Shown here in pieces: positions 1 through 41,904 of a stretch of DNA of 41,904 bases. Each line of letters starts with the position of its first letter. Position 1 is the first letter of the stretch. The notes beneath the pieces are model-generated. The model was not told the DNA's origin, did not search any database, and saw only the letters and a program-made list of their open reading frames with translations. A program made the translations under genes and the position numbers. The stretch comes from a virus. The stretch lies in the IMG/VR virus record IMGVR_UViG_3300045988_046732; one strand, written 5' to 3'.

Positions 1-119
1 ACGTGATCGCCCACATTATGAGCCATTTTACCGGGCTGACCACGGAGCCGGTGGAAGTGCTTTCCATGTATGATGGCATGAGCTGCGGCCATATCGCGCT
101 GGACAAGCTGGGTACGGAG
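1..119. repeat. Terminal overlap, identical to 41786..41904 (circular-assembly overlap or short terminal redundancy)
   Basis: Direct comparison: acgtgatcgcccacattatgagcc...ctgggtacggag occurs at both ends with offset 41,785. Confidence 0.95.
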
Positions 120-284
120 ATCACCGCCTACTATGCGACCGAGATCGACAAATACGCCATCCAGACCACGCAGCACAATTTCCCGGACACCGTGCAGCTG
201 GGCGACGCATTCCAGGTGCGGAATGAGTCGTGGAGCATCGCCCAGGCCATGGCGGAGCAGTGGGGAGGATCGGAGGTTGAATGA
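1..284 (+). CDS. DNA (cytosine-5) methyltransferase, C-terminal segment with motifs I-III (continues ORF 40747..41904 across the junction)
   Basis: In-frame continuation through the overlap. VLSMYDGMSCG resembles motif I, ATEIDK motif II, LGDAFQV motif III. Stop TGA at 282-284. Confidence 0.8.
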   Translation, partial: VIAHIMSHFTGLTTEPVEVLSMYDGMSCGHIALDKLGTEITAYYATEIDKYAIQTTQHNFPDTVQLGDAFQVRNESWSIAQAMAEQWGGSEVE

Positions 285-784
285 TGGAAAATTTTAATTG
301 CCTTCGTTGCAGCTTTAGGCATGAGGACAACGGGAACTGTACTGCGGTCGGCGGGTTCTGCACGGCGGTTGAGGCTGCCCACTGCCCGCTGCTGCGGGAA
401 TATTTGGACACGGGGATGACGCCGGAACGCTGTGCCGAATTCGCGCGAGCAAACGCGGAAGGACGGTACATCGTAATGCGTGATGCGGAGCAGGATGGCG
501 TTGCCCGCCTGCGCGAGCTGGCCGAGGCCGACAAGGACGGGCGGCTGGTGGTGCTACCGTGCAAGGTGGGCGATATAGTGTGGGCGAATCTTGACGGGAT
601 GCGGCACACCCGCAAATGCGTCATAGAATTTGCGAACATTGGAAGCCACGTTACGACCATTGTATTTTCTACAGTAGATGGATTAAGAGAACAGTACGGG
701 GTCAATCTTAGCTCATTTGGCAAGACGGTATTCCGCACCCGCGAGGAGGCGGAAGCAGCATTGGAGGGGATGAAGGATGAATGA
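281..784 (+). CDS. Hypothetical phage protein (Cys-rich N-terminus, C-terminal REEAEAALEGMKDE tail)
   Basis: 167-aa ORF with GGAGG 6 nt upstream and ATGA overlaps with both neighbours. Confidence 0.7.
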   Translation: MMENFNCLRCSFRHEDNGNCTAVGGFCTAVEAAHCPLLREYLDTGMTPERCAEFARANAEGRYIVMRDAEQDGVARLRELAEADKDGRLVVLPCKVGDIVWANLDGMRHTRKCVIEFANIGSHVTTIVFSTVDGLREQYGVNLSSFGKTVFRTREEAEAALEGMKDE

Positions 785-3840: not shown

Positions 3841-4422
3841 ATGGAAGTCACGAAGCGGCGGCTTGCGGACATTGTTCCGTATGCGGCCAACGCAAAGAAG
3901 CACGACAAGAGGCAAATCAACAATGTTGCGGAGAGTATAAAGCAATACGGCTTTGTGCAGCCGATTGTGATTGACCGTGACGGCGTGATCGTAATCGGCC
4001 ACTGCCGCGCTTTGGCGGCAAAGAAGCTGGGCATGAAAGAAGTGCCGTGCGTCTGCGTGGACGATCTGACACCGGAGCAGGTAAACGCCCTGCGGCTGGT
4101 GGATAATAAGAGCAACGAGAGCGACTGGGACCTTGACCTGCTGGCGGATGAACTGCCTGGTCTTGACCTGTCGGCGTTTGACTTTGATTGGGGGCTGCGT
4201 GACGAACTGAACAATTCCGTTGTCGAAGATGATTATGAACCTGTCATTCCGACGGAGCCGAAGAGCAAGCTGGGCGATGTGTACCAGCTTGGAGACCATC
4301 GCCTTATGTGCGGAGACAGTACATCTCTGACTGATGTACAAAAGCTTGTGGGGGGGGGCACAAATCGATCTTCTTCTCACCGATCCTCCGTACAATGTGG
4401 ACTATCAGGGCACCGCCGGTAA
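3841..4422 (+). CDS. ParB/Srx-like nuclease-domain ORF (N-terminal part of a ParB-methyltransferase fusion, ended by a frameshift at the G9 tract)
   Basis: AGGAGG SD. VPYAANAKKHDKRQINNVAESIKQYGFVQPIVIDRDGVIVIGHCRALAAKKLG is a ParB N-terminal-like core. After the G-run the frame gives 25 junk codons and a stop. Confidence 0.8.
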   Translation: MEVTKRRLADIVPYAANAKKHDKRQINNVAESIKQYGFVQPIVIDRDGVIVIGHCRALAAKKLGMKEVPCVCVDDLTPEQVNALRLVDNKSNESDWDLDLLADELPGLDLSAFDFDWGLRDELNNSVVEDDYEPVIPTEPKSKLGDVYQLGDHRLMCGDSTSLTDVQKLVGGGTNRSSSHRSSVQCGLSGHRR

Positions 4423-5035
4423 AATTAAGAACGATAACATGGAAGATGCAGCCTTTAGGCAGTTTCTGACGGATGCTTTCTCCAATGCGGCGATGGTTAT
4501 GAAACCCGGCGCTCCGTTCTACATCTGGCATGCAGACAGTGAGGGGTATAACTTCCGTGGTGCGTGTAAAGATTCGATGCTGCGCGTCCGGCAGTGCCTG
4601 ATTTGGGTAAAGAATTCCCTCGTAATGGGGAGGCAGGATTTCCAGTGGAAACATGAACCTTGCCTGTACGGCGAGAGTGAGATTGAAGAGGATGCACACG
4701 AACCCTGCCTGTACGGATGGACGGAAGGGAAGAAGCATTATTTCTTCAAGAACCGCAGGCAGACTACCGTCCTGAATTTTGATAAGCCTGTAAAATCTGC
4801 GGAGCATCCGACCATGAAGCCGATTAAGCTGTTCGATTACCAGATGCAGTGTTCCAGTAAGCCAGGAGAGAATGTTCTTGACCTGTTCGCTGGCTCCGGC
4901 ACAACGATCATGGCAGCGGAGCAGAACGGCAGACATGCTTTCTGCATGGAGTACGACCCGAAGTACGCAGATGTTATCGTTGACCGGTGGGAGAAGTTCA
5001 CAGGAGAAAAGGCGGTGCTTTTGCATGACGATTGA
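4334..5035 (+). CDS. Beta-class amino-DNA methyltransferase domain (N6-adenine or N4-cytosine), +1 frame relative to 3841..
   Basis: DLLLTDPPYNVDY (motif IV) precedes VLDLFAGSGTT (motif I). The ATG at 4334 has no SD, so the track start is probably artificial. Confidence 0.8.
   Translation: MYKSLWGGAQIDLLLTDPPYNVDYQGTAGKIKNDNMEDAAFRQFLTDAFSNAAMVMKPGAPFYIWHADSEGYNFRGACKDSMLRVRQCLIWVKNSLVMGRQDFQWKHEPCLYGESEIEEDAHEPCLYGWTEGKKHYFFKNRRQTTVLNFDKPVKSAEHPTMKPIKLFDYQMQCSSKPGENVLDLFAGSGTTIMAAEQNGRHAFCMEYDPKYADVIVDRWEKFTGEKAVLLHDD
4350..4358 (+). repeat. Homopolymeric G9 tract at the ParB/methyltransferase domain boundary
   Basis: Counted nine consecutive G. Eight G would fuse 3841.. in frame to the methyltransferase frame. 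Confidence 0.9.
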
Positions 5036-5130: not shown

Positions 5131-5499
5131 ATGGCAAGGCCAAGAAAGGAAATAGATCAGAAGCAGTTCGAGAACCTCTGCGGCCTGCAATGCACGCTTG
5201 AGGAAATCTGCGGTTGGTTTGGTGTGACTGATAAAACACTGGATAGTTGGTGTAAACGCACCTATCATGCCAGTTTTTCCGAGGTATTTAAACAAAAGCG
5301 CGGCGCGGGGAAAATTTCGCTGCGTCGGAGCCAGTGGCAGCTTGCGGCAAAGAACGCAAGCATGGCTATTTGGCTGGGGAAACAATACCTTGGACAGCGC
5401 GATATTGTTGAGCAGGGCTTTCCGACAGATAACACGCAGGAGGACGCTTTGAGCGTGAGCCTGCGTGAAATGGCAGAAGGGTTGGAGAGCGATGATTAG
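5131..5499 (+). CDS. terS: Terminase small subunit
   Basis: GGAGGG SD. N-terminal HTH-like KEIDQKQFENLCGLQCTLEEICGWFGVTDKTLDSW. Lies immediately upstream of and overlaps terL. Confidence 0.75.
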   Translation: MARPRKEIDQKQFENLCGLQCTLEEICGWFGVTDKTLDSWCKRTYHASFSEVFKQKRGAGKISLRRSQWQLAAKNASMAIWLGKQYLGQRDIVEQGFPTDNTQEDALSVSLREMAEGLESDD

Positions 5500-6772
5500 C
5501 CCGAAACAGAAGAAGATCCTTTCTTTCCCTTATTCCAAGTATGACGCGCTGATTTGCGACGGTGCTGTGCGTTCCGGTAAGACCTCAATCATGATGTGGG
5601 CGTTCGTCCGCTGGGCGATGGAGAATTTTAGCGGCCAGCGTTTCGGCGTGTGTGGCCGCACGGTTGACAGCTGCACCAAGAACATTATTGTGCCGTTCAC
5701 GGCGATGAGCCTTGCGAAGGAACGTTATATCATCCGCTGGCGGCGCGGTGATAAGGTGATGGAAGTACGGCGCGGAGCCGTGACGAATTACTTTGAAGTG
5801 TTCGGCGGCAAGGACGAGGCAAGCTATACACTGATCCAAGGCCGCACCCTGGCCGGCGTGCTGCTGGATGAGGTAGTGCTGATGCCGCGCTCGTTCGTGG
5901 AACAGGCGCTTGCACGTTGCTCTGTAGATGGTGCAAAGCTGTGGTTCTCTTGCAACCCTGGAAGCCCGCACCACTGGTTCTACCAGGAGTGGATTAAGCG
6001 GCATCGTGAGCGGAATACGCTGTATCTCCATTTCGAGATGACTGACAACCCCGGCCTGAGCGAAAGAACGCTTGAGCGCTACGCGAATATGTATGCTGGT
6101 ATCTTTTATGACCGCTATGTTCGCGGACTGTGGGTGGCAGCGGAAGGTGTCGTATACAAGGATTTCGCCAACAACACCGAGAAATACTTGATTGGGGATC
6201 CCTTGGAGTGGGCCGAGCAGAACGGGACCAGGTTCTCGATCATTTCTATTGGCGTTGACTTCGGCGGAACAAAATCCGCGACGAAGTTTCAGGCAACCGG
6301 AATCACGAAGGACTATCGTGTGGTCGCACTGGAAGAGGAATACATTAAGAACGAAGAGATTGACCCTGACGCGCTGAACCGGCGCTTTGCTACGTTTGCC
6401 CAGATGGTGACGGCAAAGTATGGATACAGCCAGACACGGGCAGACAGCGCGGAAACAGTTCTGATCCGTGGGTTAGATCATACCGCGCAAAAAATGCACC
6501 TTGGCACGCAGGTTAAGAACGCGCTGAAAATGCAAATCACAGATAGAATCCGGTTGGCGGTGCTGCTCATGAAGCAGGGCCGGTTCAAGGTTTCGCGGAG
6601 CTGCCCTCACCTGATCGATGCGCTGCAAACCGCAATTTATGATCCTGATAAGTTTGAGGACGAGCGCCTTGACGATGGAACGTCCGACATTGACAGCCTT
6701 GACGCCTTTGAGTACAGCATTGAGCCTTATTACAAAGACCTGGAACGTGCCGGTCACATGATGGGACGGTGA
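5492..6772 (+). CDS. terL: Terminase large subunit
   Basis: Walker A CDGAVRSGKTS, Walker B-like GVLLDEV, and a C-terminal nuclease region. ATG at 5492 overlaps the terS stop (track start 5465 is possible). Confidence 0.9.
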   Translation: MISPKQKKILSFPYSKYDALICDGAVRSGKTSIMMWAFVRWAMENFSGQRFGVCGRTVDSCTKNIIVPFTAMSLAKERYIIRWRRGDKVMEVRRGAVTNYFEVFGGKDEASYTLIQGRTLAGVLLDEVVLMPRSFVEQALARCSVDGAKLWFSCNPGSPHHWFYQEWIKRHRERNTLYLHFEMTDNPGLSERTLERYANMYAGIFYDRYVRGLWVAAEGVVYKDFANNTEKYLIGDPLEWAEQNGTRFSIISIGVDFGGTKSATKFQATGITKDYRVVALEEEYIKNEEIDPDALNRRFATFAQMVTAKYGYSQTRADSAETVLIRGLDHTAQKMHLGTQVKNALKMQITDRIRLAVLLMKQGRFKVSRSCPHLIDALQTAIYDPDKFEDERLDDGTSDIDSLDAFEYSIEPYYKDLERAGHMMGR

Positions 6773-6776
6773 AAAA

Positions 6777-8180
6777 GTGAATATTCGTAGAGCATTAAAG
6801 GATCTCGGGTTTGACACGGTCGACAGCAAATTTTACTCTCTGATCGACCTTTGGAACGCATGGTATAAGGGAAACGTTGAAGATTTCCACAGCTATACGG
6901 TGTGGAATGGCATTGAAGAGTTGGAGTGCCATAGGTATTCGGTGGGAATGGGAAAGAAAGTCTGCGAGGATTGGGCCAACCTCCTAATGAACGAGCGAGT
7001 CAACATCACGCTTGAAGGCAAACAGGAGCAGGAATTTATCGATACTGTTTTTGCCGACAACAACTGGGAGGTCAAGGCTAACGAATCGCAGGAGCGCAAA
7101 GCGGCAGTAGGAACCGTTGCGTATGTGCCGGTGATGGAAGGCATGGGAATTAATCCAGATACGGCAGAGATCGTTGATTCTGGGCGTATTCGCATTAACT
7201 ACGTTAGTGCCGGGAACATCTACCCGCTGACGTGGGATAACGGCGTTATCCGTGAGTGTGCGTTCGCGTCCACCAGAAAGGTCGATGACAAGGAATATAC
7301 TTACATCCAAGTTCACCGGCTTCGTAACGGCGAGTATGACATTGAGAACCACCTGTATGATGCGGAGGAAGTCCCGTTAACCAGCGTAAAGGGGTTTGAC
7401 ACAATTCCTCCGGTAATCCATACCGGCATCGACAAGCCGCAGTTTGTGATCGACCGGCTGAACATTGCAAACTCTGACGAAAATAACCCGCTTGGCGTGG
7501 CTGTTTTTGCCCACGCCATCGACCAGCTCAAGAGCGTTGATATTACCTATGACAGCTATGTGAATGAATTTGTCCTTGGCAAGAAGCGCATTGTGGTACA
7601 GCCGGAGGCCACCAAGAGCATTGACGGTCGACCAGTGTTTGATAAGCGTGAGACCGTTTATTATGTGCTGCCGGAGGACAGAGGCGGAAACGGCAACATC
7701 TTACAGCAGGTCGATATGTCTCTGCGGACGGCGGAGTTTAACACCGGTATGCAAGATATGCTGAACATCCTGTCCAGCAAGTGCGGCTTCGGTGAGAATC
7801 ATTACAAATTTGACCAAGGCAGTATTGCAACGGCCACGCAGGTCATCAGCGAGAACAGCACCCTGTTCCGCACGATCAAAAAACATGAAATTGTGCTTGA
7901 ACGGGCAATCACAGAGTTGTGCCGGAGCTTGCTCCGCATGGGGAATCGATACATGGGCGCATCACTTAATGAGGACGTCCAGATCTCCATTGACTTTGAC
8001 GATTCCATCATTGAGGACAAGGGCCAGGACTTTAACCGTGACGTGCAGCTTCTTAACGCTGGCATCATGAACGATTGGGAGTTCCGTATGCGCTGGATGA
8101 ACGAGGACGAAGCCACCGCAAAGGCAGCACTGCCGAAGGCACAGGATATGGCGGACGAAGCAGAAGAAGAGATTGAGTGA
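6777..8180 (+). CDS. Portal protein (SPP1 gp6-like)
   Basis: 467 aa with a GTG start, located directly after terL. Acidic C-terminus and typical portal size. Confidence 0.85.
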   Translation: MNIRRALKDLGFDTVDSKFYSLIDLWNAWYKGNVEDFHSYTVWNGIEELECHRYSVGMGKKVCEDWANLLMNERVNITLEGKQEQEFIDTVFADNNWEVKANESQERKAAVGTVAYVPVMEGMGINPDTAEIVDSGRIRINYVSAGNIYPLTWDNGVIRECAFASTRKVDDKEYTYIQVHRLRNGEYDIENHLYDAEEVPLTSVKGFDTIPPVIHTGIDKPQFVIDRLNIANSDENNPLGVAVFAHAIDQLKSVDITYDSYVNEFVLGKKRIVVQPEATKSIDGRPVFDKRETVYYVLPEDRGGNGNILQQVDMSLRTAEFNTGMQDMLNILSSKCGFGENHYKFDQGSIATATQVISENSTLFRTIKKHEIVLERAITELCRSLLRMGNRYMGASLNEDVQISIDFDDSIIEDKGQDFNRDVQLLNAGIMNDWEFRMRWMNEDEATAKAALPKAQDMADEAEEEIE

Positions 8181-10502: not shown

Positions 10503-11096
10503 ATGGCACTTACACGCAAACTTTTAAAGGGCATGGGTCTCACCGACGAACAGGTGGATACCATCATTGAGGCGCATACCGACACCGTGGACGGCCTGAA
10601 GGCTGATATCAGCCGTTACAAGACGGATGCGGAAAAGCTGCCCGGCGTCCAGAAGCAGTTGGACGATCTAAAGGCGGTGGGTGACGGCGGCTATCAGGAT
10701 AAGTACGAGAAGGAGCACAAAGCCTTTGAGGACTTTAAAGCTGGCGTCACGGCAAAGGAAAGCAAGGCGGCAAAGGAAAAGGCCGTTCGTGCTTACTTTG
10801 AAAGCAAAAACATCACCGGCGCAAATCTCGACCTTGCCATGCGTGGCTGCGGCGAGGAAATGGCAGCGTTGGAGCTGGACGGCGAGAAAATCAAGGACAC
10901 CAAAAGCCTTGACGCCCTCGTAGACGGCACCTACAAGGGGCTTGTTTCCAAGCCTGCTATTCGGGTTGATATGGGTGGACGGCTCAATGAAGGCGGGAAA
11001 CCCATGACAAAGGACGAGATCATGCAAATCACAGACAGAGCGGAGCGGCGTGCTGCAATCGCTGCAAATATGGATTTGTTTAGAAAGGAAGAATGA
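10503..11096 (+). CDS. Head scaffolding protein
   Basis: 197-aa charged, helical, K/E/D/A-rich protein directly upstream of and overlapping the capsid gene. Confidence 0.75.
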   Translation: MALTRKLLKGMGLTDEQVDTIIEAHTDTVDGLKADISRYKTDAEKLPGVQKQLDDLKAVGDGGYQDKYEKEHKAFEDFKAGVTAKESKAAKEKAVRAYFESKNITGANLDLAMRGCGEEMAALELDGEKIKDTKSLDALVDGTYKGLVSKPAIRVDMGGRLNEGGKPMTKDEIMQITDRAERRAAIAANMDLFRKEE

Positions 11097-11971
11097 AAAT
11101 GGCTGTTGATCCTAAGCTGATTAAGAAGGAAGATCTTGCTCGTGTTCGCGAGATCGAGTTCACCGAAATGTTCGGCTACTCCATCAAGAAGCTGATGGAG
11201 GCTCTGGGTGTTACCCGTAAGTTTGCCAAGCAGGCCGGTACTGTGCTCAAGAGCTACAAGGCAACCGGCACTTTGGAGGACGGCGCTGTGGCCGAGGGCG
11301 AGACCATCCCCCTGAGCAAGTACAAGACCGAAGCCGTGAACTATAAGGAGATCACCTTGAAGAAGTGGCGCAAGGCCACCTCTGCCGAGGCAATCACTGA
11401 TCGCGGCTACGATCAGGCCGTCGAAATGACCACCGATGAAATGCTGAAGGACGTGCAGAAGGGCATCCGCAAGGACTTCTTCGACTTCCTTGCAACTGGT
11501 TCCGGAACGGCATCTGGTGCGACCTTCCAGGCTACCCTTGCACAGGCATGGGGCCAGCTGCAGGTGCTGTTCGAGGACGACGAGATCGGCGCAGTTTATT
11601 TCATGAACCCGCTGGACGTTGCGGACTATCTCGCAACTGCCAACATCACCCTGCAGACCGCTTTCGGCATGACCTATGTCGAGAACTTCATCGGTCTGGG
11701 CACTGTGATTCTGAACTCCAGCGTCCCCAAGGGCAAGATTTACGCCACCGCTAAGGACAACATCGTCCTGTACTACATCCCCGTGAACGGCGCTGATCTG
11801 GGCGAGGTGTTTGACTTTGTCACCGACGCAACCGGCTACATCGGTATCCACGAGGAGCCTGATTACACTAACATGACTGCGTCTGATACCGTTATTAACG
11901 GTATGGCGCTGTTTGCCGAGCGCATCGATGGCGTGGTTGTTGGCACTATTACCCCGGCAGTGGGGGGCTGA
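11093..11971 (+). CDS. Major capsid protein
   Basis: 292 aa after the scaffold gene. Position and size are typical. Ends ...PAVGG-TGA inside a G6 run. Confidence 0.85.
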   Translation: MKMAVDPKLIKKEDLARVREIEFTEMFGYSIKKLMEALGVTRKFAKQAGTVLKSYKATGTLEDGAVAEGETIPLSKYKTEAVNYKEITLKKWRKATSAEAITDRGYDQAVEMTTDEMLKDVQKGIRKDFFDFLATGSGTASGATFQATLAQAWGQLQVLFEDDEIGAVYFMNPLDVADYLATANITLQTAFGMTYVENFIGLGTVILNSSVPKGKIYATAKDNIVLYYIPVNGADLGEVFDFVTDATGYIGIHEEPDYTNMTASDTVINGMALFAERIDGVVVGTITPAVGG

Positions 11972-15401: not shown

Positions 15402-17414
15402 ATGGCAGCTGATGGCTCCATTATCATCGAAACAAAATTGGATGATGCTGATGCGCAAAAAGAGTTGATCAAGCTCTCGAAGAAAATCGACAAAATGCGC
15501 GAGGAATTGTCCGAAAAGCAAACCCAGCAGAGCGGCATTAAATCCGAACTTGAAGCGGCCACCAACGAGGCATTGAAAACTGAAAAGGTCATTTCGCGCT
15601 TAAAGGCTGAGCTATCTGACACCCAGCAGATTACCAGCGGTAAAACAAATGCCAGCCCGCTTGAATTTTTGTCAGCCCAGGAGAAGCAGGCGGCTATAAC
15701 CGCAAGCCTTAAAGAGCAGGAAGCCCTTTTGAATTCCCAAAACAAAGACGCCGAAAAACTTGGGAAGCAATACACCGGAATTACCGATAAGGTAATAAAC
15801 CAGTCTACCGCGCTTGAAACTGCCGAAAACAGAGCTGCAGAGCTGACGGAACAACTTTCCCATGCGGGGAAAGAAGCTGGAAATATGCCACCCAGCTTTG
15901 ACAAAATAGGGAAAAAACTACAGTCTATGGCCCGCCGTGTCTTTGTTTTTACGGTCGTTCTTTCCGTTCTGCGCCAGATTAAAGCTTTTCTTTGGGACGT
16001 CATCAAGGCTGACGCCCAAGCATCCGCCGCGTTTGCCCAACTAAAGGGGGCACTGCTTACATTGGCACAGCCTATAATCAGCGTTGTTGTTCCAGCCTTT
16101 ACGCTTCTGGTGCATGTGCTCACTGCCGTTGTATCTCAGCTTGCCCGTTTGGTGGCGATGATTTCAGGGAAAAGCATTGACTCAGCAAAGAAATCAGCTA
16201 AAGCCTTAAACGATCAGACAAAGGCGTTGAAGGGGACCGGGAAAGCGGCCAAAGACGCCGGGAAATCCTTGGCGGCTTTCGATGAGATCAATCAGCTGTC
16301 GGACAACAGCTCGTCTGCGTCCGGTGGCGGGGCAAGCTCCACCGACATTGCTCCTGATTTCAGTTTCCTTGACGGCGTAGATGAACGACTTCGCAAAATT
16401 GCAAATGCGGTGCTTCTAATTGGAGCGGGGCTTGCACTATGGAAGATCTCCTCTAAGCTCCCCGGTATGCTGGGAGAGATCGGCACAAAGTTGGCCGGAA
16501 TGGCGATTGCCATCGGTGGACTTATGCTGATGTTTGACGGCTTAAAGGACGCCTGGGAAAACGGGCTTGACTGGACAAGCCTAATGGAAATCATCGCAGG
16601 TGCAACGGCCCTTGTGAGCGGCCTTACCCTTGCTTTTGGAAAAAACGGGACGGCCATCGGACTGGTTGTTGCAGGCTTAGCGGCGCTTGTAACTGGATTT
16701 TCGGACGCAATGGAAAACGGTGTAAACCTCAAGAACACCCTGCTTGTTCTGGCCGGGATTATTGCTACCGGCCTTGGAATCGGGATGCTGACCAACAGCA
16801 CACTCCCAGCTTTGGTGGCCGGTATTATGTCCGTCCTTTATGCTATCACTGTTTTGGTGGGCAATGGCGACCAGCTGATGCAAAACTTCAAGGAGATTTT
16901 TGCCGGGGCTGCTGAGTTTATTGACGGTCTTATCCATCAGGATGTTAATAAAATGCTGAACGGCTTGAAAAAGATGGTGAAAGGGGCGCTGAACGCTGTT
17001 TTGACCATTGTCGGCAGTGTTGTAAATTTGATCATTCGTGGGTTGAACTGGCTGATCGACAAAATCAACAGCATTTCATTCTCCGTTCCCGATTGGGTCC
17101 CTGGAATCGGCGGAAAGAGCTGGAGCGCCAACATTCCTCACGCGGCTGAATGGGGTATTCCTCAGCTTGCACTGGGTGCAGTTATCCCTCCAAACCGGGA
17201 GTTCTTGGCGGTGCTGGGCGACCAGAAGTCCGGGACTAACATTGAAGCTCCGCTTGAAACCATCGTTCAGGCGTTTCGGCAGGCTTTGGCGGAACAGGGC
17301 GGGAACGGGAGTAATCGGCCTATCATTCTGATGCTCGACCGTCGTGAGCTTGGCCGTGCCGTTGTTGATGTTGGCAATCAGGAAAATGTTCGTGTAGGCG
17401 TATCTTTGACATAA
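15402..17414 (+). CDS. Tape measure protein
   Basis: 670 aa with an N-terminal coiled coil and central Gly/Ala-rich hydrophobic segments, in the canonical position. Confidence 0.9.
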   Translation: MAADGSIIIETKLDDADAQKELIKLSKKIDKMREELSEKQTQQSGIKSELEAATNEALKTEKVISRLKAELSDTQQITSGKTNASPLEFLSAQEKQAAITASLKEQEALLNSQNKDAEKLGKQYTGITDKVINQSTALETAENRAAELTEQLSHAGKEAGNMPPSFDKIGKKLQSMARRVFVFTVVLSVLRQIKAFLWDVIKADAQASAAFAQLKGALLTLAQPIISVVVPAFTLLVHVLTAVVSQLARLVAMISGKSIDSAKKSAKALNDQTKALKGTGKAAKDAGKSLAAFDEINQLSDNSSSASGGGASSTDIAPDFSFLDGVDERLRKIANAVLLIGAGLALWKISSKLPGMLGEIGTKLAGMAIAIGGLMLMFDGLKDAWENGLDWTSLMEIIAGATALVSGLTLAFGKNGTAIGLVVAGLAALVTGFSDAMENGVNLKNTLLVLAGIIATGLGIGMLTNSTLPALVAGIMSVLYAITVLVGNGDQLMQNFKEIFAGAAEFIDGLIHQDVNKMLNGLKKMVKGALNAVLTIVGSVVNLIIRGLNWLIDKINSISFSVPDWVPGIGGKSWSANIPHAAEWGIPQLALGAVIPPNREFLAVLGDQKSGTNIEAPLETIVQAFRQALAEQGGNGSNRPIILMLDRRELGRAVVDVGNQENVRVGVSLT

Positions 17415-24225: not shown

Positions 24226-25728
24226 ATGCTCAAAATCGCCATTGATGCGGGCCACTACAAGAGGACGCCGGGTCGGCGGTGCTTAGCCGCCCTGGACCCC
24301 GCCCAGACGGGAGAGTGGGAGCTTAACCGCCGGGTGGCGGACAAGCTGGAGGCGCTGCTGGCGGGGTATGACTGCCAGGTCCTCCGGGTGGACGACAAGA
24401 CCGGGGACAGGCTGATCGACCTGGGAGACCGGGTGGCGGCGGCCAACGGCTGGCCCGCGGACGTATATCTGAGCATCCACCACAACGCAGGAATTCGCGG
24501 CGGCAGCGGGGGCGGCTGCGTGGTATACACGGCCCCCGCCTGTCAGGCCAAAAGTAAGGCCCTCCAGCGGGCCGTTTACGGGGCCGTGGTGAGCCGGACG
24601 GGGCTGGTGGGCAACCGGGCCACCCCCATGGCGGAGAGCGGCCTGTACGTGCTCCGGCGGACAAAAATGCCCGCTATTCTCATTGAGTGCGGCTTCATGG
24701 ACAGCTCCACAGACGTGCCGGTGATCCTGGGGCCGTACTTCGCGGCGCAGGTGGCCGAGGGGCTTCTGGCGGCGCTGGTGGAGGTATTTGAGCTGAGAGA
24801 GCGCAAGGAGGTGCGGGAGCGGATGAGCTATACCAAGAGGGGCGGGGCCCACATTGTGGAGGTGCCGGTCAAGGACTTTGGTGTCCGGCTGGTGGACAAG
24901 GCCAAAAAGACGGCGTACCGCGGCAACTACTGCAACGCCGGTTTTTTTGGCAACTACAACGAGGGCCGGGACAAGTTTACCCTCCCCGTGGGACACACGG
25001 TGGCGGCCATGGCGACGGACAACAAGTGGGTAAACCACTACTGCGCCCAGCGGGGCAAGGTGTCCGGCGGCAAGCTGGTCTATGCTGAGCCGGGACGGAC
25101 GGAGACCACCCTGTTTGTCCGGGGCAACCTGGCGGACATGGGGGAGCTGAGCGCACCCCCGGAGGGCTGCGCCTATGCCATTGCCGGCGTGCCCGTGCTG
25201 CGGCAGGGCAAGGCGGTGAGCTGGGCCGCCGCAAAGGCCCAGGGCTGGGAGGCGTCCTCTCTCTATGCCACATGGCACATCTTTGCCGGGTACGGACAGG
25301 ACCGGAGCAAGATCACGGTGGTAGCGCTGAGGACCACCACGGGCAACCTGATCTCCAGCGGCGAGGGGGCCAAAAAGCTGGCGGCCCTGGGGCTACGGGA
25401 GGCCATCAAGCTGGACGGGGGCGGCAGCACCATCCTCCGGGCGGGGGGCAAGACCCCCGTATGCACGGCGGGCAATCGGCGGATCTGCACAGTGCTGACC
25501 TTTGGGGGCAATCCGTACACCGCCCCCACCAAGGCGCTGGCCAAGGGCAACCGGGGCGAGGGCGTGCGGTGGCTCCAGTGGGAACTCAAAGACCGGGGCT
25601 TTCCCTGCGCCGTAGACGGCAGCTTTGGCCCGGGGACCAAGGAGGCCCTGATGGCCTATCAGGTGAGCGCGGGGCTGGTGCCGGACGGCAGCTGCGGCCC
25701 GGCGACGAGAAAGGCGCTGCAAGAATAA
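24226..25728 (+). CDS. Endolysin: N-acetylmuramoyl-L-alanine amidase (Amidase_3), central DUF2233/phosphodiester-glycosidase-like domain, C-terminal PG_binding_1
   Basis: IAIDAGH...YLSIHHNAG...AILIECGFMDS (amidase). NAGFFGNY...IKLDGGGST (central domain). GEGVRWLQWELKDRGF...VDGSFGPGTKEALMAYQ (PG-binding). Confidence 0.85.
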   Translation: MLKIAIDAGHYKRTPGRRCLAALDPAQTGEWELNRRVADKLEALLAGYDCQVLRVDDKTGDRLIDLGDRVAAANGWPADVYLSIHHNAGIRGGSGGGCVVYTAPACQAKSKALQRAVYGAVVSRTGLVGNRATPMAESGLYVLRRTKMPAILIECGFMDSSTDVPVILGPYFAAQVAEGLLAALVEVFELRERKEVRERMSYTKRGGAHIVEVPVKDFGVRLVDKAKKTAYRGNYCNAGFFGNYNEGRDKFTLPVGHTVAAMATDNKWVNHYCAQRGKVSGGKLVYAEPGRTETTLFVRGNLADMGELSAPPEGCAYAIAGVPVLRQGKAVSWAAAKAQGWEASSLYATWHIFAGYGQDRSKITVVALRTTTGNLISSGEGAKKLAALGLREAIKLDGGGSTILRAGGKTPVCTAGNRRICTVLTFGGNPYTAPTKALAKGNRGEGVRWLQWELKDRGFPCAVDGSFGPGTKEALMAYQVSAGLVPDGSCGPATRKALQE

Positions 25729-29353: not shown

Positions 29354-29399
29354 TAGGCATATTAGATGTTCAGTGTGGGGAATATAAAATAAGCCTAAC
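29352..29399. other. Candidate attP core for the serine integrase
   Basis: About 48 bp of imperfect dyad symmetry (gttaggcatatt ... aatataaaataagcctaac) abutting the integrase 3' end, at the boundary between cargo and lysogeny modules. Confidence 0.3.
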
Positions 29400-30696
29400 G
29401 AGGCAAAACAAAAAACGCGCCGTTATTATCTGCTTCGATCCGCTTTACTGTTCTGGTCCAGAATTCTTTTTTCATTTGCGGCGATAGGTTTGGATATTCC
29501 TCAATCTCTCTATGGAGTGCGTCACGGTCAAAATATTTCGGCTTTTGCGGTTCCATTTGCGATAGCTGTTGTTTTAAATCCTCATAATCTTTTCTATATT
29601 CGTCCAGCTCTATTAAATCAGCAAGGTATAGGTCTTTAAGTTTCGACATCTTTTTTCTGATTTTGTCCGCAGATAATGCGGGCTTTTTTTCTGCCTCATC
29701 GTATTGCCCGTGATATTTTGCGGCCATCTGCTCAATGCTGTTCAGCATGTAACTCTCCAGCACATCCTCTCGAACGCATTGGCGATGATCGCACTGTGCA
29801 TTCATCCTAAATTGTGTCCTGCACCGATAGTATTTATAACCCTTTACTGCGTTAGACTGCATTATTTGCCCGCATTCACGACAACGCAATATACCAGAAA
29901 ACAGATATACATTACCTTTCCTCGTGCCACAGCAGCGCTGGCTCCGCTGTTTCATGATTTCTCCGGCCAGCTCAAAGTCATGTGTGCTGATAAGCGCCGG
30001 GAATGCGTTTTCAATTCCATATACTTCTCCGATATATAGACGATTTGTTATTGCGTTTTTGTAATTGTTATATGCTCGATAAATACCCCAGGTGTCAAAC
30101 ATATATTGCCTGAGTGCGAGAGTGCTTTTTAGTTTGATATAAGCACTAAACATATCCACGGCAATCTCTGCTGTATTTTGGTCTATCTCATATCGTCCAT
30201 CCTTGATCGTTATTCCAAGGGGAGTTTTTGACCCGGAAGGTATTCCTTTTGCTTTCTTCCCTTCATTTATAAATTTAATCCGTTCACTTGTCCGGTCGGC
30301 TTCGTCCTGGGCGACGGACAGCATAATATTAACCTTTAACCGCCCGGACGCCGTCCGTGTTTCATAATCCTCTTTGGTGGCCTGCCAAGTCACGCCGTAC
30401 TTATCAAGCTGCGTTTGTACGTCGTAATATCCAGCGACATTTCTAAACCACCGATCCAATTTAATAAATAGGATGGTATCAATTTTCCCGCTCTTGCAAT
30501 CCTCCAGCAGCCTAAGCAGCGCCGGCCGCTTTTTATACGGCTTTCTGGCTGAGATCCCGGCATCCTCATAGATCCCGACAACCTCCATTTCATGCGCTTC
30601 TGCATATCGCTCCAGCGACTCTTTTTGCTCTGCAAGGGACAGGCCGTGTCGGGCCTGCTCCTCTGTTGACACGCGAATATATAATGCAGCCCTCAT
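29395..30696 (-). CDS. Large serine recombinase (integrase)
   Basis: MRAALYIRVSTEEQ (catalytic Ser), resolvase and recombinase domains, zinc ribbon CRECGQIM...YYRC and a C-terminal coiled coil. GGAGGAG SD at ATG 30696. Confidence 0.9.
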   Translation of the reverse strand: MRAALYIRVSTEEQARHGLSLAEQKESLERYAEAHEMEVVGIYEDAGISARKPYKKRPALLRLLEDCKSGKIDTILFIKLDRWFRNVAGYYDVQTQLDKYGVTWQATKEDYETRTASGRLKVNIMLSVAQDEADRTSERIKFINEGKKAKGIPSGSKTPLGITIKDGRYEIDQNTAEIAVDMFSAYIKLKSTLALRQYMFDTWGIYRAYNNYKNAITNRLYIGEVYGIENAFPALISTHDFELAGEIMKQRSQRCCGTRKGNVYLFSGILRCRECGQIMQSNAVKGYKYYRCRTQFRMNAQCDHRQCVREDVLESYMLNSIEQMAAKYHGQYDEAEKKPALSADKIRKKMSKLKDLYLADLIELDEYRKDYEDLKQQLSQMEPQKPKYFDRDALHREIEEYPNLSPQMKKEFWTRTVKRIEADNNGAFFVLPR

Positions 30697-30697
30697 C

Positions 30698-31111
30698 TTA
30701 TCTCCTCCAGAATCCATAGTTTAGACAGTTCATATCAATGTACACGCACCAGATGGAGAGAAACACGATGATGCAAAACATAATAAAAATAACGACGTTT
30801 CGGATGCGCACACCGCGACGCATGATTTCTATGGTGTCTGCCTTTGCGTCAACGTGCCGTTCCAATTCGTCGTTTCGAGCTTTCAATGTTCGTTCCGTTG
30901 GAGTCAAGTGTTCGGAGATCCCGAACACTTCGTCGAGAGATATCCCGAGGGATTTGCAGATCGGCGCTGCGGTATAAATAGAGGGGGCCTTGGACATCTT
31001 CGAGAAAAAGTTCTGAACCGTGGAAATTGGAACGCCGGATTCATCCGAGATTTCTTGATATGTGAGCTTCAGCGCATCTTTCCGGATTCTACACAACTCT
31101 TGTATGTTCAT
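30698..31111 (-). CDS. Membrane-anchored XRE-family HTH protein, adjacent to (one nucleotide upstream of) the integrase gene
   Basis: AGGAGG SD. HTH LTYQEISDESGVPISTVQNFFS, a coiled coil, and a C-terminal TM segment VVIFIMFCIIVFLSIWCVYI. Its stop lies 1 nt from the integrase start. Confidence 0.7.
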   Translation of the reverse strand: MNIQELCRIRKDALKLTYQEISDESGVPISTVQNFFSKMSKAPSIYTAAPICKSLGISLDEVFGISEHLTPTERTLKARNDELERHVDAKADTIEIMRRGVRIRNVVIFIMFCIIVFLSIWCVYIDMNCLNYGFWRR

Positions 31112-39910: not shown

Positions 39911-40735
39911 GTGAACATCGTATCTTTCGGAGGCGGCACCAACAGCACCGCCATGATCATCGGAATGTATCTGCACAAGATACCCATTGACCTGATCCTG
40001 TTTGCGGACACCGGGGGAGAGCAACCCCACACCTATGAGTTTATTGAGATATTCAATCGCTGGCTGGTGGAGCACGGACTGCCGAAAATCATCTCCGTGG
40101 AGTACCACGACAAGGACGGGAATCGGCTGACGCTGGAACAGGAGTGCCTAAACAGCGGAACGCTGCCCTCCATCGCCTATGGGTTTAAGCGATGCTCGTT
40201 AAAGCACAAAATCGGCACGCAGGAAAAATACTGCAACAACTACCAGCCGTGCAAGGACGTGTGGGCCAGCGGGCAGAGAGTCCACAAGTATATCGGATAC
40301 GATGCCGGGGAGACACGGCGCATCCAGCACGCAGCCCCGGCGGACGAGGCGAACAAAAAGTATGAGAACCACTACCCCCTCTATGTGTGGGGTTGGACCC
40401 GGGATGAGTGCGTGCGCGTGATCGAGCGGGCCGGACTGCCAAGGCCCGGGAAAAGCTCCTGTTTCTTTTGCCCGTCGATGAAAAAGAAGGAAATCCAGGC
40501 CCTGTGGGAGAACTACCCCGAGCTGTTCCGGCGGGCGGTGGAAATCGAGCACGGGGCGGAAGCGACGAACGTTAACGTCAAAGGGCTGGGACGTAACTGG
40601 TCTTGGGAGAGCTACTACAACGAGTTCCTTGCGAACAAGGAGTTTGAGGATGCGCAGATCACCTTTGACGAGTTATTCCCGGACAGCCCTGGCGGCTGCC
40701 TTTGTGGCGCTCCGTGCGGGTGCTGCGACGGGTGA
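39911..40735 (+). CDS. PAPS-reductase-like PP-loop ATPase-family protein with a C-terminal Cys cluster
   Basis: GTG start. SFGGGTNSTAM is an SGGxDS-type PP-loop. The C-terminus is GGCLCGAPCGCCDG. Confidence 0.7.
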   Translation: MNIVSFGGGTNSTAMIIGMYLHKIPIDLILFADTGGEQPHTYEFIEIFNRWLVEHGLPKIISVEYHDKDGNRLTLEQECLNSGTLPSIAYGFKRCSLKHKIGTQEKYCNNYQPCKDVWASGQRVHKYIGYDAGETRRIQHAAPADEANKKYENHYPLYVWGWTRDECVRVIERAGLPRPGKSSCFFCPSMKKKEIQALWENYPELFRRAVEIEHGAEATNVNVKGLGRNWSWESYYNEFLANKEFEDAQITFDELFPDSPGGCLCGAPCGCCDG

Positions 40736-40746
40736 GGAGGCGGAAA

Positions 40747-41904
40747 ATGAGAATCTTGATTGGCGGAAGCCCTTGCACACACTGGAGCATCGCGCAGACC
40801 AAAAACCGGGAGACAAAAGCGGAGGGCATCGGCTGGGAGCTGTTCCGCAACTATGTGATCGCCCGAGACAAATACCAGCCGGACTATTTCCTGTATGAAA
40901 ACAACAAGTCCATGTCGCCCGCCATCCGGGCACAGATCACCAAGGAGCTGGGCGTTGGACCCGTGCTTATCAACTCTGCGCTGGTGAGCGCACAGAACCG
41001 CCAACGCCTGTATTGGGTGGGCAGACGGAACCCGGACGGCACATACAGCCAGGTGGCGGTGGAGCAGCCGGTGGACCGTGGGATCCTCCTGCGCGATATT
41101 CTGGAAAGTGGTGTCTGCTGGAAAGAAAAAGGGTATGCCCTGCTGTCCACAACTGGCGGAACAACGGCAGACGACATGGTTTCCAGACACCAGCGGAATG
41201 GTGCGGCGGAACCTGTTGCCATTAAGCCGCTGACCGAAAAAGAAATGGATTATATGGTGCGCGAAACCAAGGACGGGCGGTACCATTTTGATTTCGATTA
41301 TTTCCACGACGCAACGCAGGGAAAAAGCGCCTGCGTGACGGCGAACCTCCATAAGGGCGTCCCGTATAACGTTCTGGTGGAGCCGATGAGGATCGGCACC
41401 ATTGAGAACGACGCAAAGAACCAGACTTTTGACAGCCAGCAATACCGTGTTTACAGCTCGGACGCCAAAAGCGTAACCCTCTGCGGGAATGGCGGCGGCC
41501 TGGGCGCAAAAACCGGGCTTTATGCCGTGCCCGTTATCCCGGACAGAAAAGGGCAGTTTGTAATTAAGGCGGCAGGCGGAAAAGAAATCCCAGTTTACGA
41601 GGTTCGCGGCGGGCGGATCACCATCAAAGGAAAGACATACCCCATTAAACTGGCAGACGGATTTTACATCATTCGCAAGTTGACCGTGACGGAATGTAAA
41701 CGTCTCCAGACCGCGCCGGACACATACGCCTTTCCTGTCAGCGACAGCCAGGCGTATAAGATGCTGGGCAACGGCTGGACGGTGGACGTGATCGCCCACA
41801 TTATGAGCCATTTTACCGGGCTGACCACGGAGCCGGTGGAAGTGCTTTCCATGTATGATGGCATGAGCTGCGGCCATATCGCGCTGGACAAGCTGGGTAC
41901 GGAG
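40747..41904 (+). CDS. DNA (cytosine-5) methyltransferase with permuted motif order (IV-X then I-III); runs off the window end and continues at 1..284
   Basis: GAGGAGG SD with ATG at 40747. Motifs ILIGGSPCTHWS (IV), YENN (VI), SAQNRQR (VIII), TECKRLQTAPDTY (IX), LGNGWTVDV (X). No stop before 41904, so it is absent from the ORF track. Confidence 0.85.
   Translation, partial: MRILIGGSPCTHWSIAQTKNRETKAEGIGWELFRNYVIARDKYQPDYFLYENNKSMSPAIRAQITKELGVGPVLINSALVSAQNRQRLYWVGRRNPDGTYSQVAVEQPVDRGILLRDILESGVCWKEKGYALLSTTGGTTADDMVSRHQRNGAAEPVAIKPLTEKEMDYMVRETKDGRYHFDFDYFHDATQGKSACVTANLHKGVPYNVLVEPMRIGTIENDAKNQTFDSQQYRVYSSDAKSVTLCGNGGGLGAKTGLYAVPVIPDRKGQFVIKAAGGKEIPVYEVRGGRITIKGKTYPIKLADGFYIIRKLTVTECKRLQTAPDTYAFPVSDSQAYKMLGNGWTVDVIAHIMSHFTGLTTEPVEVLSMYDGMSCGHIALDKLGTE
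41786..41904. repeat. Terminal overlap, identical to 1..119
   Basis: Direct comparison of both ends. Confidence 0.95.

Follow-up and report, generated by a model that had tools for sequence, protein, structure and literature searches.

The viral record IMGVR_UViG_3300045988_046732, a stretch of 41,904 nucleotides referred to below as the window, codes across its two ends for a 440-residue protein in which the conserved motifs of DNA (cytosine-5) methyltransferases, here called C5 enzymes, follow one another in the permuted order IV, VI, VIII, a variable region, IX, X, I, II and III. We hold with high confidence, judging from its sequence, that this protein is an intact orphan C5 DNA methyltransferase of a temperate gut siphophage, circularly permuted, with a fold of the M.HhaI/DNMT3 type and probably active. 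It is a new topological variant of a well-known enzyme class and brings no new chemistry. More tentatively, the balance tips slightly towards a broader joint claim. According to this claim, the protein belongs to the first recognised natural clade of C5 enzymes permuted inside the Rossmann domain (IV-X, I-III), abundant in the prophages of gut Clostridia, under strong purifying selection and accompanied by tandem-fusion intermediates. Its topology ('type C') would have hitherto been known only from laboratory evolution and equals the order of class-beta enzymes.

Motif order and organisation of the protein

At its two ends the window carries the same 119 nt (positions 1-119 and 41786-41904, an exact match), giving a circle of 41,785 bp. 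The methyltransferase gene starts at ATG 40747, 6 nt behind the Shine-Dalgarno-like GAGGAGG at 40734-40740, meets no stop before the window end, and continues in frame through the overlap up to TGA 282-284. Start, overlap and length were all found by joining the ends as the sequence-only reading, an earlier note on this DNA, had described them. That reading had also remarked that the gene was absent from the list of open reading frames (ORFs); the list indeed shows only a fragment at 3-284, because the gene runs off the window end and ORFs leaving an end are not listed. The parts of the gene are as follows (AdoMet, S-adenosylmethionine; TRD, target-recognition domain).

40734..40740, + strand: Shine-Dalgarno-like GAGGAGG, read from the sequence
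40747..41904, + strand: first part of the permuted C5 methyltransferase ORF, residues 1-386 (Pfam PF00145, E 6.8e-31)
40747..41031, + strand: block B, catalytic sub-domain, residues 1-95, with motifs IV (GGSPC, residues 6-10), VI (YENN, residues 50-53) and VIII (QNRQR, residues 83-87)
41032..41646, + strand: variable or target-recognition region, residues 96-300, which differs among relatives and holds TRD-like modules
41647..41814, + strand: block C, residues 301-356, with motif IX (RKLTVTECKRLQT; TECKRLQ, residues 314-320) and motif X (GNGWTVDV helix; GNGW, residues 341-344); aligns with M.HhaI 233-316
41815..41835, + strand: short linker, residues 357-363, from the ancestral C-terminus to the ancestral N-terminus, within the GNG-to-motif-I spacing
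41836..41904, + strand: block A, first part, residues 364-386, with the AdoMet-binding motif I (VLSMYDGMSCG; YDGMSCG, residues 370-376); aligns with the N-terminal motif I of DNMT3A
41786..41904, no strand: terminal overlap, an exact match to window 1-119; circularisation signature that holds the join of motif X to motif I
120..284, + strand: continuation of the ORF past the circular junction, residues 387-440 and TGA 282-284 (positions 1-119 duplicate 41786-41904)
120..233, + strand: block A, second part, residues 387-424, with motifs II (ATEID, residues 392-396, including Glu394) and III (LGDAFQV, with GDAFQV at residues 414-419, including Asp415) up to Trp424
234..281, + strand: variable C-terminal tail, residues 425-440, differing in length and sequence among close homologues

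The profile PF00145 matches the protein with 108.3 bits against a cut-off of 22, in three stretches. With this match and with all of the quoted motifs in place, the assignment to the C5 enzymes made by the sequence-only reading stands; the profile search that it had proposed gave three stretches where it had named two order-swapped hits. An alignment by phmmer with the catalytic domain of DNMT3A shows the motif swap directly: residues 354-403 of the query fall on DNMT3A 7-56 (motif I), and residues 3-92 fall on 86-180 (motifs IV-VIII). Together with the motif positions, this alignment places the break between motifs III and IV, as had been proposed. The protein thus carries the Pro-Cys pair, a glutamate of the ENV type, QxRxR, the AdoMet motifs I, II, III and X and a similar fold, besides passing the PF00145 threshold; it departs from the C5 enzymes in the order I to X, in place of which we observed IV-VIII, TRD, IX-X and I-III.

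From these positions, the chain would begin four residues before strand beta4 and place the catalytic cysteine at residue 10 (codon 40774-40776), followed by the remainder of motifs IV-VIII with the further block B residues Glu51, Arg85 and Arg87. A long modular target-recognition region and motifs IX-X would come next, and a linker of about 8 residues would then lead into motifs I-III, the AdoMet pocket that is N-terminal in ordinary enzymes. By analogy with the family, Cys10 would attack C6 of a flipped-out cytosine while Glu51 protonates N3, and the methyl group would be donated by AdoMet held in motifs X and I-III.

A large family with the same order

The permuted order is shared by most homologues, which answers the question raised by the sequence-only reading of whether relatives have it too. 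A word-indexed search with the 440-residue protein returned more than 8,000 matches; in all of the best 120, the sequence opens with M[KR]xL[IL]GGSPC, and about 70 residues separate motif I from the C-terminus. The exhaustive search, which covered 1.84 billion representatives at 50% identity, yielded 8,773 proteins at E<=0.001, and most of the best 150 of these are permuted. We called architectures with hidden Markov models (HMMs) for the three blocks (B for IV-VIII, C for IX-X and A for I-III). Among 272 collected sequences, 180 were BCA, 40 were the canonical ABC, two were ABCABC and one was CABC, the remainder being fragments.

In a scan of one genome per bacterial species, 394 related loci were detected, and a single uninterrupted BCA ORF is present in 75 of the 80 loci that were kept. 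Permuted enzymes had been called rare by the sequence-only reading. This holds for the literature and fails for nature, where the family is large. The carriers are overwhelmingly Clostridia (Oscillospiraceae, Lachnospiraceae, Acutalibacteraceae and Christensenellaceae), and the loci are mostly prophages. Cultured carriers include Flavonifractor sp. An92, Oscillibacter sp. 1-3, Anaerotruncus colihominis JM4-15, Acutalibacter caecimuris, Robinsoniella peoriensis and Criibacterium bergeronii. A permuted homologue of 559 residues is also coded by Phage nd4 (OR777945.1 32378-34054), where it was deposited as 'hypothetical protein'. Four permuted homologues (L006, L062, L067 and L080) come from metagenome-assembled genomes assigned to Desulfovibrio, Bacteroidota, Bacteroidales or Corallococcus. 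Mis-binning of phage contigs probably explains these cases, rather than true hosts outside the Clostridia.

Some relatives are interrupted by inteins exactly at the catalytic cysteine of motif IV (GGSP|CFVA...), namely the permuted proteins P0141, P0228 and P0253 and the canonical proteins P0144, P0167, P0181 and P0190. The intein-bearing relatives contain Hint/Intein_splicing domains, and some of them LAGLIDADG homing-endonuclease domains. In the permuted hosts the intein starts from residue 10, leaving an N-extein of just 9 residues. A literature search on inteins at the catalytic cysteine of C5 methyltransferases found no paper, and the methyltransferase gene of the window contains no intein.

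Origin of the permutation

The lengths of the segments at the cut and at the join fit a clean rearrangement. In 37 canonical relatives, 20-22 residues separate the Gly-Asp of motif III from the Pro-Cys of motif IV, corresponding to a 21-residue connector. About 11 residues of this connector (GDAFQVRNESW) end the conserved C-terminal part of the permuted protein, and about 8 (MRILIGGS) open its N-terminus. The connector is thus kept almost whole, split over the new termini, and the cut therefore lies in the loop of 3-4 residues before beta4; judged from these lengths, almost nothing was lost or duplicated at the cut. At the join, 26-31 residues lie between the GNG of motif X and motif I in 177 permuted proteins; in canonical relatives, the C-terminal tail and the N-terminal head taken together span a range that includes these values (median 34, many 25-31).

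Natural proteins that resemble steps of such a rearrangement were found. P0125 (962 residues) and P0248 (618 residues) are head-to-tail fusions of two complete C5 methyltransferases, and P0269 (556 residues) has the CABC form, with motifs IX-X ahead of a full enzyme. These three are candidate natural intermediates of permutation by duplication. Since tandem fusions and the CABC form are the states that the permutation-by-duplication model requires, duplication, fusion and trimming are the likely origin of the permuted order, and the tandem duplication trimmed at both ends that the sequence-only reading had envisaged is plausible. The living tandem-fusion forms in related lineages offer natural material for this model.

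A single origin has to be weighed against several independent permutations, or segments shuffled non-homologously, a possibility that we consider unlikely though it is the strongest of the alternatives treated here. A neighbour-joining (NJ) tree was built from 195 columns of the re-ordered and concatenated blocks in 114 sequences. All 69 permuted representatives fall into one clade there, nested among canonical sequences with the same unusual signatures, PCTxWS in motif IV and ENN in motif VI. What counts for repeated origins is that strict monophyly of this clade reaches a bootstrap of only 52/100, and that neither P0125 nor P0248 is its immediate sister, P0248 being distant. Besides the clade itself, shared details argue for one origin. 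In motif I, 54 of 61 permuted proteins have 'MY', as against 28 of 40 canonical ones with 'LF', and this apparently derived character points the same way; the linker length is fixed within its narrow range, and the catalytic cysteine is residue 10 or 11 in nearly all permuted members. Moreover, M.HaeIII evolved in the laboratory gave rise to active III/IV permutants by way of tandem intermediates, as reported in a 2018 paper (PMC5944983). On the comparative evidence, we favour a single origin in which two canonical genes would have fused head to tail, with subsequent loss of motifs I-III from the first copy and of motifs IV-X from the second.

The recognition region and the role of the enzyme

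Between close relatives and the query, residues 1-263 and the C-terminal third show 94-95% identity, and the relatives carry insertions in between. A TRD-like module could be defined there by an HMM built from query residues 222-270, with the pattern ...RxYSxxGKSxTL..GGG..TGLYAVPV. Permuted proteins contain one (79 proteins), two (55), three (36) or four to five (4) such modules in tandem. The repetition suggests, by analogy, that members of the family protect against several restriction systems, and the window enzyme is probably multi-target. It weighs against this extension that module repeats are what points to multispecificity and that the query itself has one clear module, at residues 223-267 (41413-41547), next to two weaker look-alikes at about 126-164 and 193-222. 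The modular recognition region could supply new specificities.

In its most economical reading, the enzyme serves an orphan, self-protective, anti-restriction role: phage DNA would be marked at one or several short targets and so shielded from host restriction, by analogy with the enzyme family. An active enzyme with another substrate or role, such as methylation of tRNA or other RNA (as for Dnmt2) or epigenetic control of genes in the phage or its host, is improbable. It gains some appeal from the best sequence matches in the PDB, which are eukaryotic DNMT3A/B/C and not bacterial restriction-modification enzymes, and from the fact that orphan methyltransferases can be regulatory. The large recognition region is, however, of the DNA type, with modules in the T-L style of DNA enzymes, and the gene lies in the early or replication region of the phage near genes for a Lar-like protein and a ParB-fused methyltransferase, both of which favour the protective role.

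Conservation, selection and predicted structure

We examined conservation in an alignment of 56 sequences (A1) reaching down to about 42% identity. Invariant residues are P9, C10, E51, N52, Q83, R85 and R87 in motifs IV, VI and VIII; Q321, G341, N342 and W344 in motifs IX and X; and S368, D371, G372, E394 and G414 in motifs I, II and III. D415 and W424 are conserved in at least 90%. Selection was estimated block by block from 79-82 sequences (ORFs of the genome loci and the window gene), using hundreds of pairs with a synonymous rate (dS) of 0.2-1.5. The median ratio of non-synonymous to synonymous rates (dN/dS) was 0.065 for block B (IV-VIII), 0.12 for block C (IX-X) and 0.10 for the relocated block A (I-III), suggesting strong purifying selection on the permuted family, the relocated block included.

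AlphaFold2 (with A1) gave a model with a predicted template modelling score (pTM) of 0.75 and a mean predicted local distance difference test score (pLDDT) of 73.5. Most of the core (residues 1-120 and 300-430) has a pLDDT of about 86-98, falling to about 67-78 at residues 11-20 and 111-120; the motif I region exceeds 90. The predicted secondary structure runs beta4-alphaD-beta5-alphaE-beta6-beta7, the helices of motifs IX-X, and beta1-alphaA-beta2-alphaB-beta3, which in the model is the series of a class I methyltransferase read from beta4 on. Foldseek searches against the PDB and BFVD both confirmed the fold, the top matches being M.HhaI (E 6e-13, probability 1.0), DNMT3A/B/C, M.MpeI, M.HaeIII and tobacco DRM. 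The comparison of an AlphaFold model with M.HhaI, which the sequence-only reading had suggested, thus recovered the expected fold over the IV-X part.

Several observations speak against an intact, permuted C5 enzyme. The Foldseek match covers only the IV-X part, with a template modelling (TM) score of 0.58-0.60 normalised to M.HhaI; because its alignment is sequential, it cannot display a permutation. Residues 122-210 are poorly modelled (pLDDT <50). Motif VI reads ENN and not ENV, as it also does in canonical relatives. Finally, the window gene differs from its nearest relative, L004, by 9 non-synonymous and 2 synonymous changes, which are too few to interpret and provide no evidence of constraint at a short timescale. 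Because such nearest pairs (the window against L004/L005) differ at just 11 sites and are uninformative, the block-wise dN/dS was used instead.

One could ask whether the rearranged gene is a decayed, non-catalytic relic, for instance a DNA-binding remnant, which we regard as more improbable still than a different substrate or role. Apart from the excess of non-synonymous changes in the L004 pair, it could draw on the NCBIfam model TIGR00675 (dcm model), under whose cut-off of 100.65 the protein falls with 91.1 bits, aligning to profile positions 63-327 only (IV-X). Such a low score is expected, since a permutation depresses the score against a linear profile. A relic would also hardly retain catalytic and AdoMet residues that are all invariant or nearly so across the 56 diverse members, dN/dS values of 0.07-0.12 in each block and an ORF intact in nearly all of the loci kept. 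An intact and probably active enzyme explains these observations better. Linear profiles under-score permuted proteins, as the TIGR00675 result and the 'hypothetical protein' of Phage nd4 illustrate, and phage and prophage 5-methylcytosine methylomes in gut Clostridia may therefore be under-annotated.

Continuity of the gene across the window ends

As the gene bridges the ends of the window, the sequence-only reading had named a mis-join, and a stop or frameshift between motifs X and I, as outcomes that would undo it. No such stop or frameshift exists, and the frame stays open. A protein of 440 residues that is 98% identical to the window protein (P0004) is coded mid-contig in L004, a linear contig of 33.8 kb from a European Nucleotide Archive (ENA) assembly, and on L005, a contig of 2.3 kb from Logan. 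A 3.4-kb segment spanning the junction, in which the overlap region occupies positions 1767-2004, aligned with L004 and L005 at 97% identity and unbroken over positions 1-2163. With the gene found unbroken in linear contigs from other assemblies, the concern about the junction is moot.

An assembly artefact, in which the end overlap joins unrelated pieces or collapses a repeat and the 440-residue ORF exists in no real molecule, can practically be dismissed: the ORF becomes visible only once the ends are joined and 119 nt is a common assembler k-mer size, but the X-to-I join lies wholly within the overlap and hence at both contig ends, and the two further assemblies and 75 genome loci with the same single ORF rule out a mis-join or repeat collapse.

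We also considered whether the permuted order could stem from integration or excision of the phage, with a prophage in a host methyltransferase gene or attP in the X-I linker. This was rejected, because the serine integrase gene (29395-30717) is about 10 kb off, because integration at the linker would not restore a canonical gene, and because the gene is likewise found as one ORF in the middle of contigs with differing genomic contexts.

Genomic setting

The circle is a genome of the temperate siphophage type, whose structural genes match only uncultured human-faecal phage contigs. Its landmarks, and the genes around the methyltransferase, are listed here.

5465-6772: large terminase
6777-8180: portal
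11093-11971: major head protein
15402-17414: tape measure protein
24226-25728: endolysin
29395-30717, minus strand: serine integrase
35-39 kb: replication module
39911-40735, + strand: ORF of 274 residues with weak likeness to 3'-phosphoadenosine-5'-phosphosulfate (PAPS) reductase (phrog_424, E 2.5e-33), no Pfam match
281..784, + strand: downstream gene of 167 residues, phrog_38832 (unknown function), whose ATG overlaps the methyltransferase stop (ATGA)
777-1055, + strand: Lar-like restriction-alleviation gene (phrog_599, E 1.5e-11), two genes downstream of the methyltransferase
3841-5035, + strand: gene for a ParB-fused amino-methyltransferase, 3.5 kb beyond the methyltransferase, split

The methyltransferase gene stands at the end of the replication module, directly after the PAPS-reductase-like ORF. 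The ATGA overlap suggests that it forms one operon with the 167-residue gene. In L004, a gene of 274 residues (5165-5989) likewise directly precedes the methyltransferase; it resembles the window ORF in length and position and likewise shows no Pfam match, and this gene and the methyltransferase may be a conserved pair. Pfam and NCBIfam searches on the two flanking ORFs gave nothing useful beyond the weak PAPS-reductase-like PHROG match.

The Lar-like gene and the two methyltransferases make up a small putative anti-restriction cluster around the circular junction. In the second of these methyltransferase genes, the ParB-like N-terminus (3841-4422; phrog_498 positions 33-221) and the DPPY part (4334-5035; phrog_498 214-432) lie in different frames, the change of frame falling on nine consecutive G (about 4349-4357). 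A sequencing error in this homopolymer could account for it, as could decay to a pseudogene or a switch by phase variation or frameshifting. Among the neighbouring genes scanned (the PAPS-reductase-like ORF, the 167-residue ORF and the Lar-like gene), none was recognised as coding for an endonuclease, such as the adjacent cognate one of a restriction-modification system.

Comparison with known enzymes

Canonical phage C5 relatives, represented by Pelagibacter phage HTVC134P gp5 (WMM95357.1) and the metagenomic proteins P0148, P0159 and P0182, carry nearly the motifs of the window protein throughout: VLSLFDGMSCG...YYASEIDKYAIQ...LGD, GSPC, ENN or ENV, SAQxRxRLYW, RKLTxxECERLQT and MLGNGWTVDVIAHI. 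Their variable region is also long. They differ in order, which is I-III followed by IV-X with the 21-residue III-IV connector intact; in the window protein this connector is severed and the former termini are linked.

The plant enzymes DRM1 and DRM2, which Cao et al. in 2000 reportedly described with the order VI-X, I-V and a break between V and VI, have the X-to-I join at nearly the same spacing, and DRM2 (7L4C) aligns unbroken with query residues 331-436, that is, with motifs X, I, II and III. In sequence, DRM and the phage family alike resemble DNMT3. DRM is, however, eukaryotic and carries UBA domains, whereas the window protein is coded by phages and prophages, has motifs IV and V at its N-terminus and no other Pfam domain.

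Natural prokaryotic permutants are the type H or zeta-like enzymes M.BssHII, M.Alw26I, M2.Eco31I, M.Esp3I and M2.BsaI, in which motif X leads straight into motif I as in the window protein. Their N-terminus lies in the variable region (IX, X, I-VIII) and both domains are left intact, whereas the break in the window protein falls inside the Rossmann domain, between III and IV. With an N-terminus 4 residues before motif IV and motifs IX-X in the C-terminal third, the window protein is not of type H, and the motif positions bear out the earlier claim that its break point differs from those of M.BssHII and DRM. A survey of REBASE for C5 enzymes with motif X before I found 27, all permuted in the variable region, and this topology is the only one that the paper reports for natural enzymes, explicitly so for the neighbouring type B (PMC5944983).

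Closest in topology are laboratory permutants, the M.HaeIII variants starting between III and IV and the 'type C' M.MpeI, which have the order of the window protein (IV...X, I...III) and are artificial. According to the same paper, engineered permutants cut at II/III or III/IV are active, and the III/IV permutants of M.HaeIII (Peisajovich et al. 2006), reached via tandem-duplication intermediates, show that the topology is compatible with activity (PMC5944983). The variant cp122M.MpeI had low activity, undetectable on gels (PMC5944983); from the position of the catalytic cysteine in M.MpeI, we infer that its new N-terminus falls between III and IV.

C5 methyltransferases have a textbook motif order, to which the open literature that we searched offers one prokaryotic and one plant alternative, and one paper argues that nature favours cuts leaving the two structural domains intact. 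The open-access full texts searched, REBASE itself lying outside that search, describe no natural C5 enzyme of the order IV-X, I-III; a mention of 'permut' in a preprint on phage glycosyltransferases was unrelated. We consider it slightly more likely than not that no description of this topology exists. If so, the family would overturn a rule stated in the literature, by which permuted C5 enzymes in nature always have their cut in the variable region and keep both domains intact. A large family cut at III/IV and under purifying selection would mean that nature also uses a topology found viable by directed evolution. Its value lies in the study of protein-topology evolution and in annotation. 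Split or engineered methyltransferases may conveniently be built on an enzyme whose catalytic cysteine is residue 10 and whose cofactor module is C-terminal.

The same regional order, catalytic motif IV, TRD and AdoMet motif I, occurs in the class-beta N6-adenine and N4-cytosine amino-methyltransferases (M.PvuII, M.RsrI, CcrM and M.EcoGII), the class being defined by it (PMC7544214). Class-beta motif IV is (D/N/S)PP(Y/F), with different chemistry and no close sequence relation, in contrast to GGSPC in the window protein, which shares the class-beta topology and is not a member of that amino-methyltransferase family. As beta enzymes are proposed to require dimerisation (PMC7544214), the permuted C5 family, if correctly read, would be a natural test of whether beta-order topology enforces it.

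The multispecific C5 enzymes of Bacillus phages resemble the window protein in being phage-coded and in having an enlarged variable region, for which the window family has its 1-5 tandem TRD-like modules. The orphan enzymes of phages SPR, phi3T, rho11s and H2, as Trautner and co-workers are said to have found, carry several tandem TRDs and protect against several restriction systems. They differ in their canonical I-X order, and in the window family multispecificity is suggested by comparison.

Among solved structures, the best sequence matches of the window protein are mammalian DNMT3A/3B/3C (E ~1e-12), ahead of M.HhaI (E ~5e-9), and one homologue was named 'DNA (cytosine-5)-methyltransferase 3A' by the Joint Genome Institute (JGI). 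On the prokaryotic side, the DNMT3/DRM lineage may have one of its closer relatives in this phage family.

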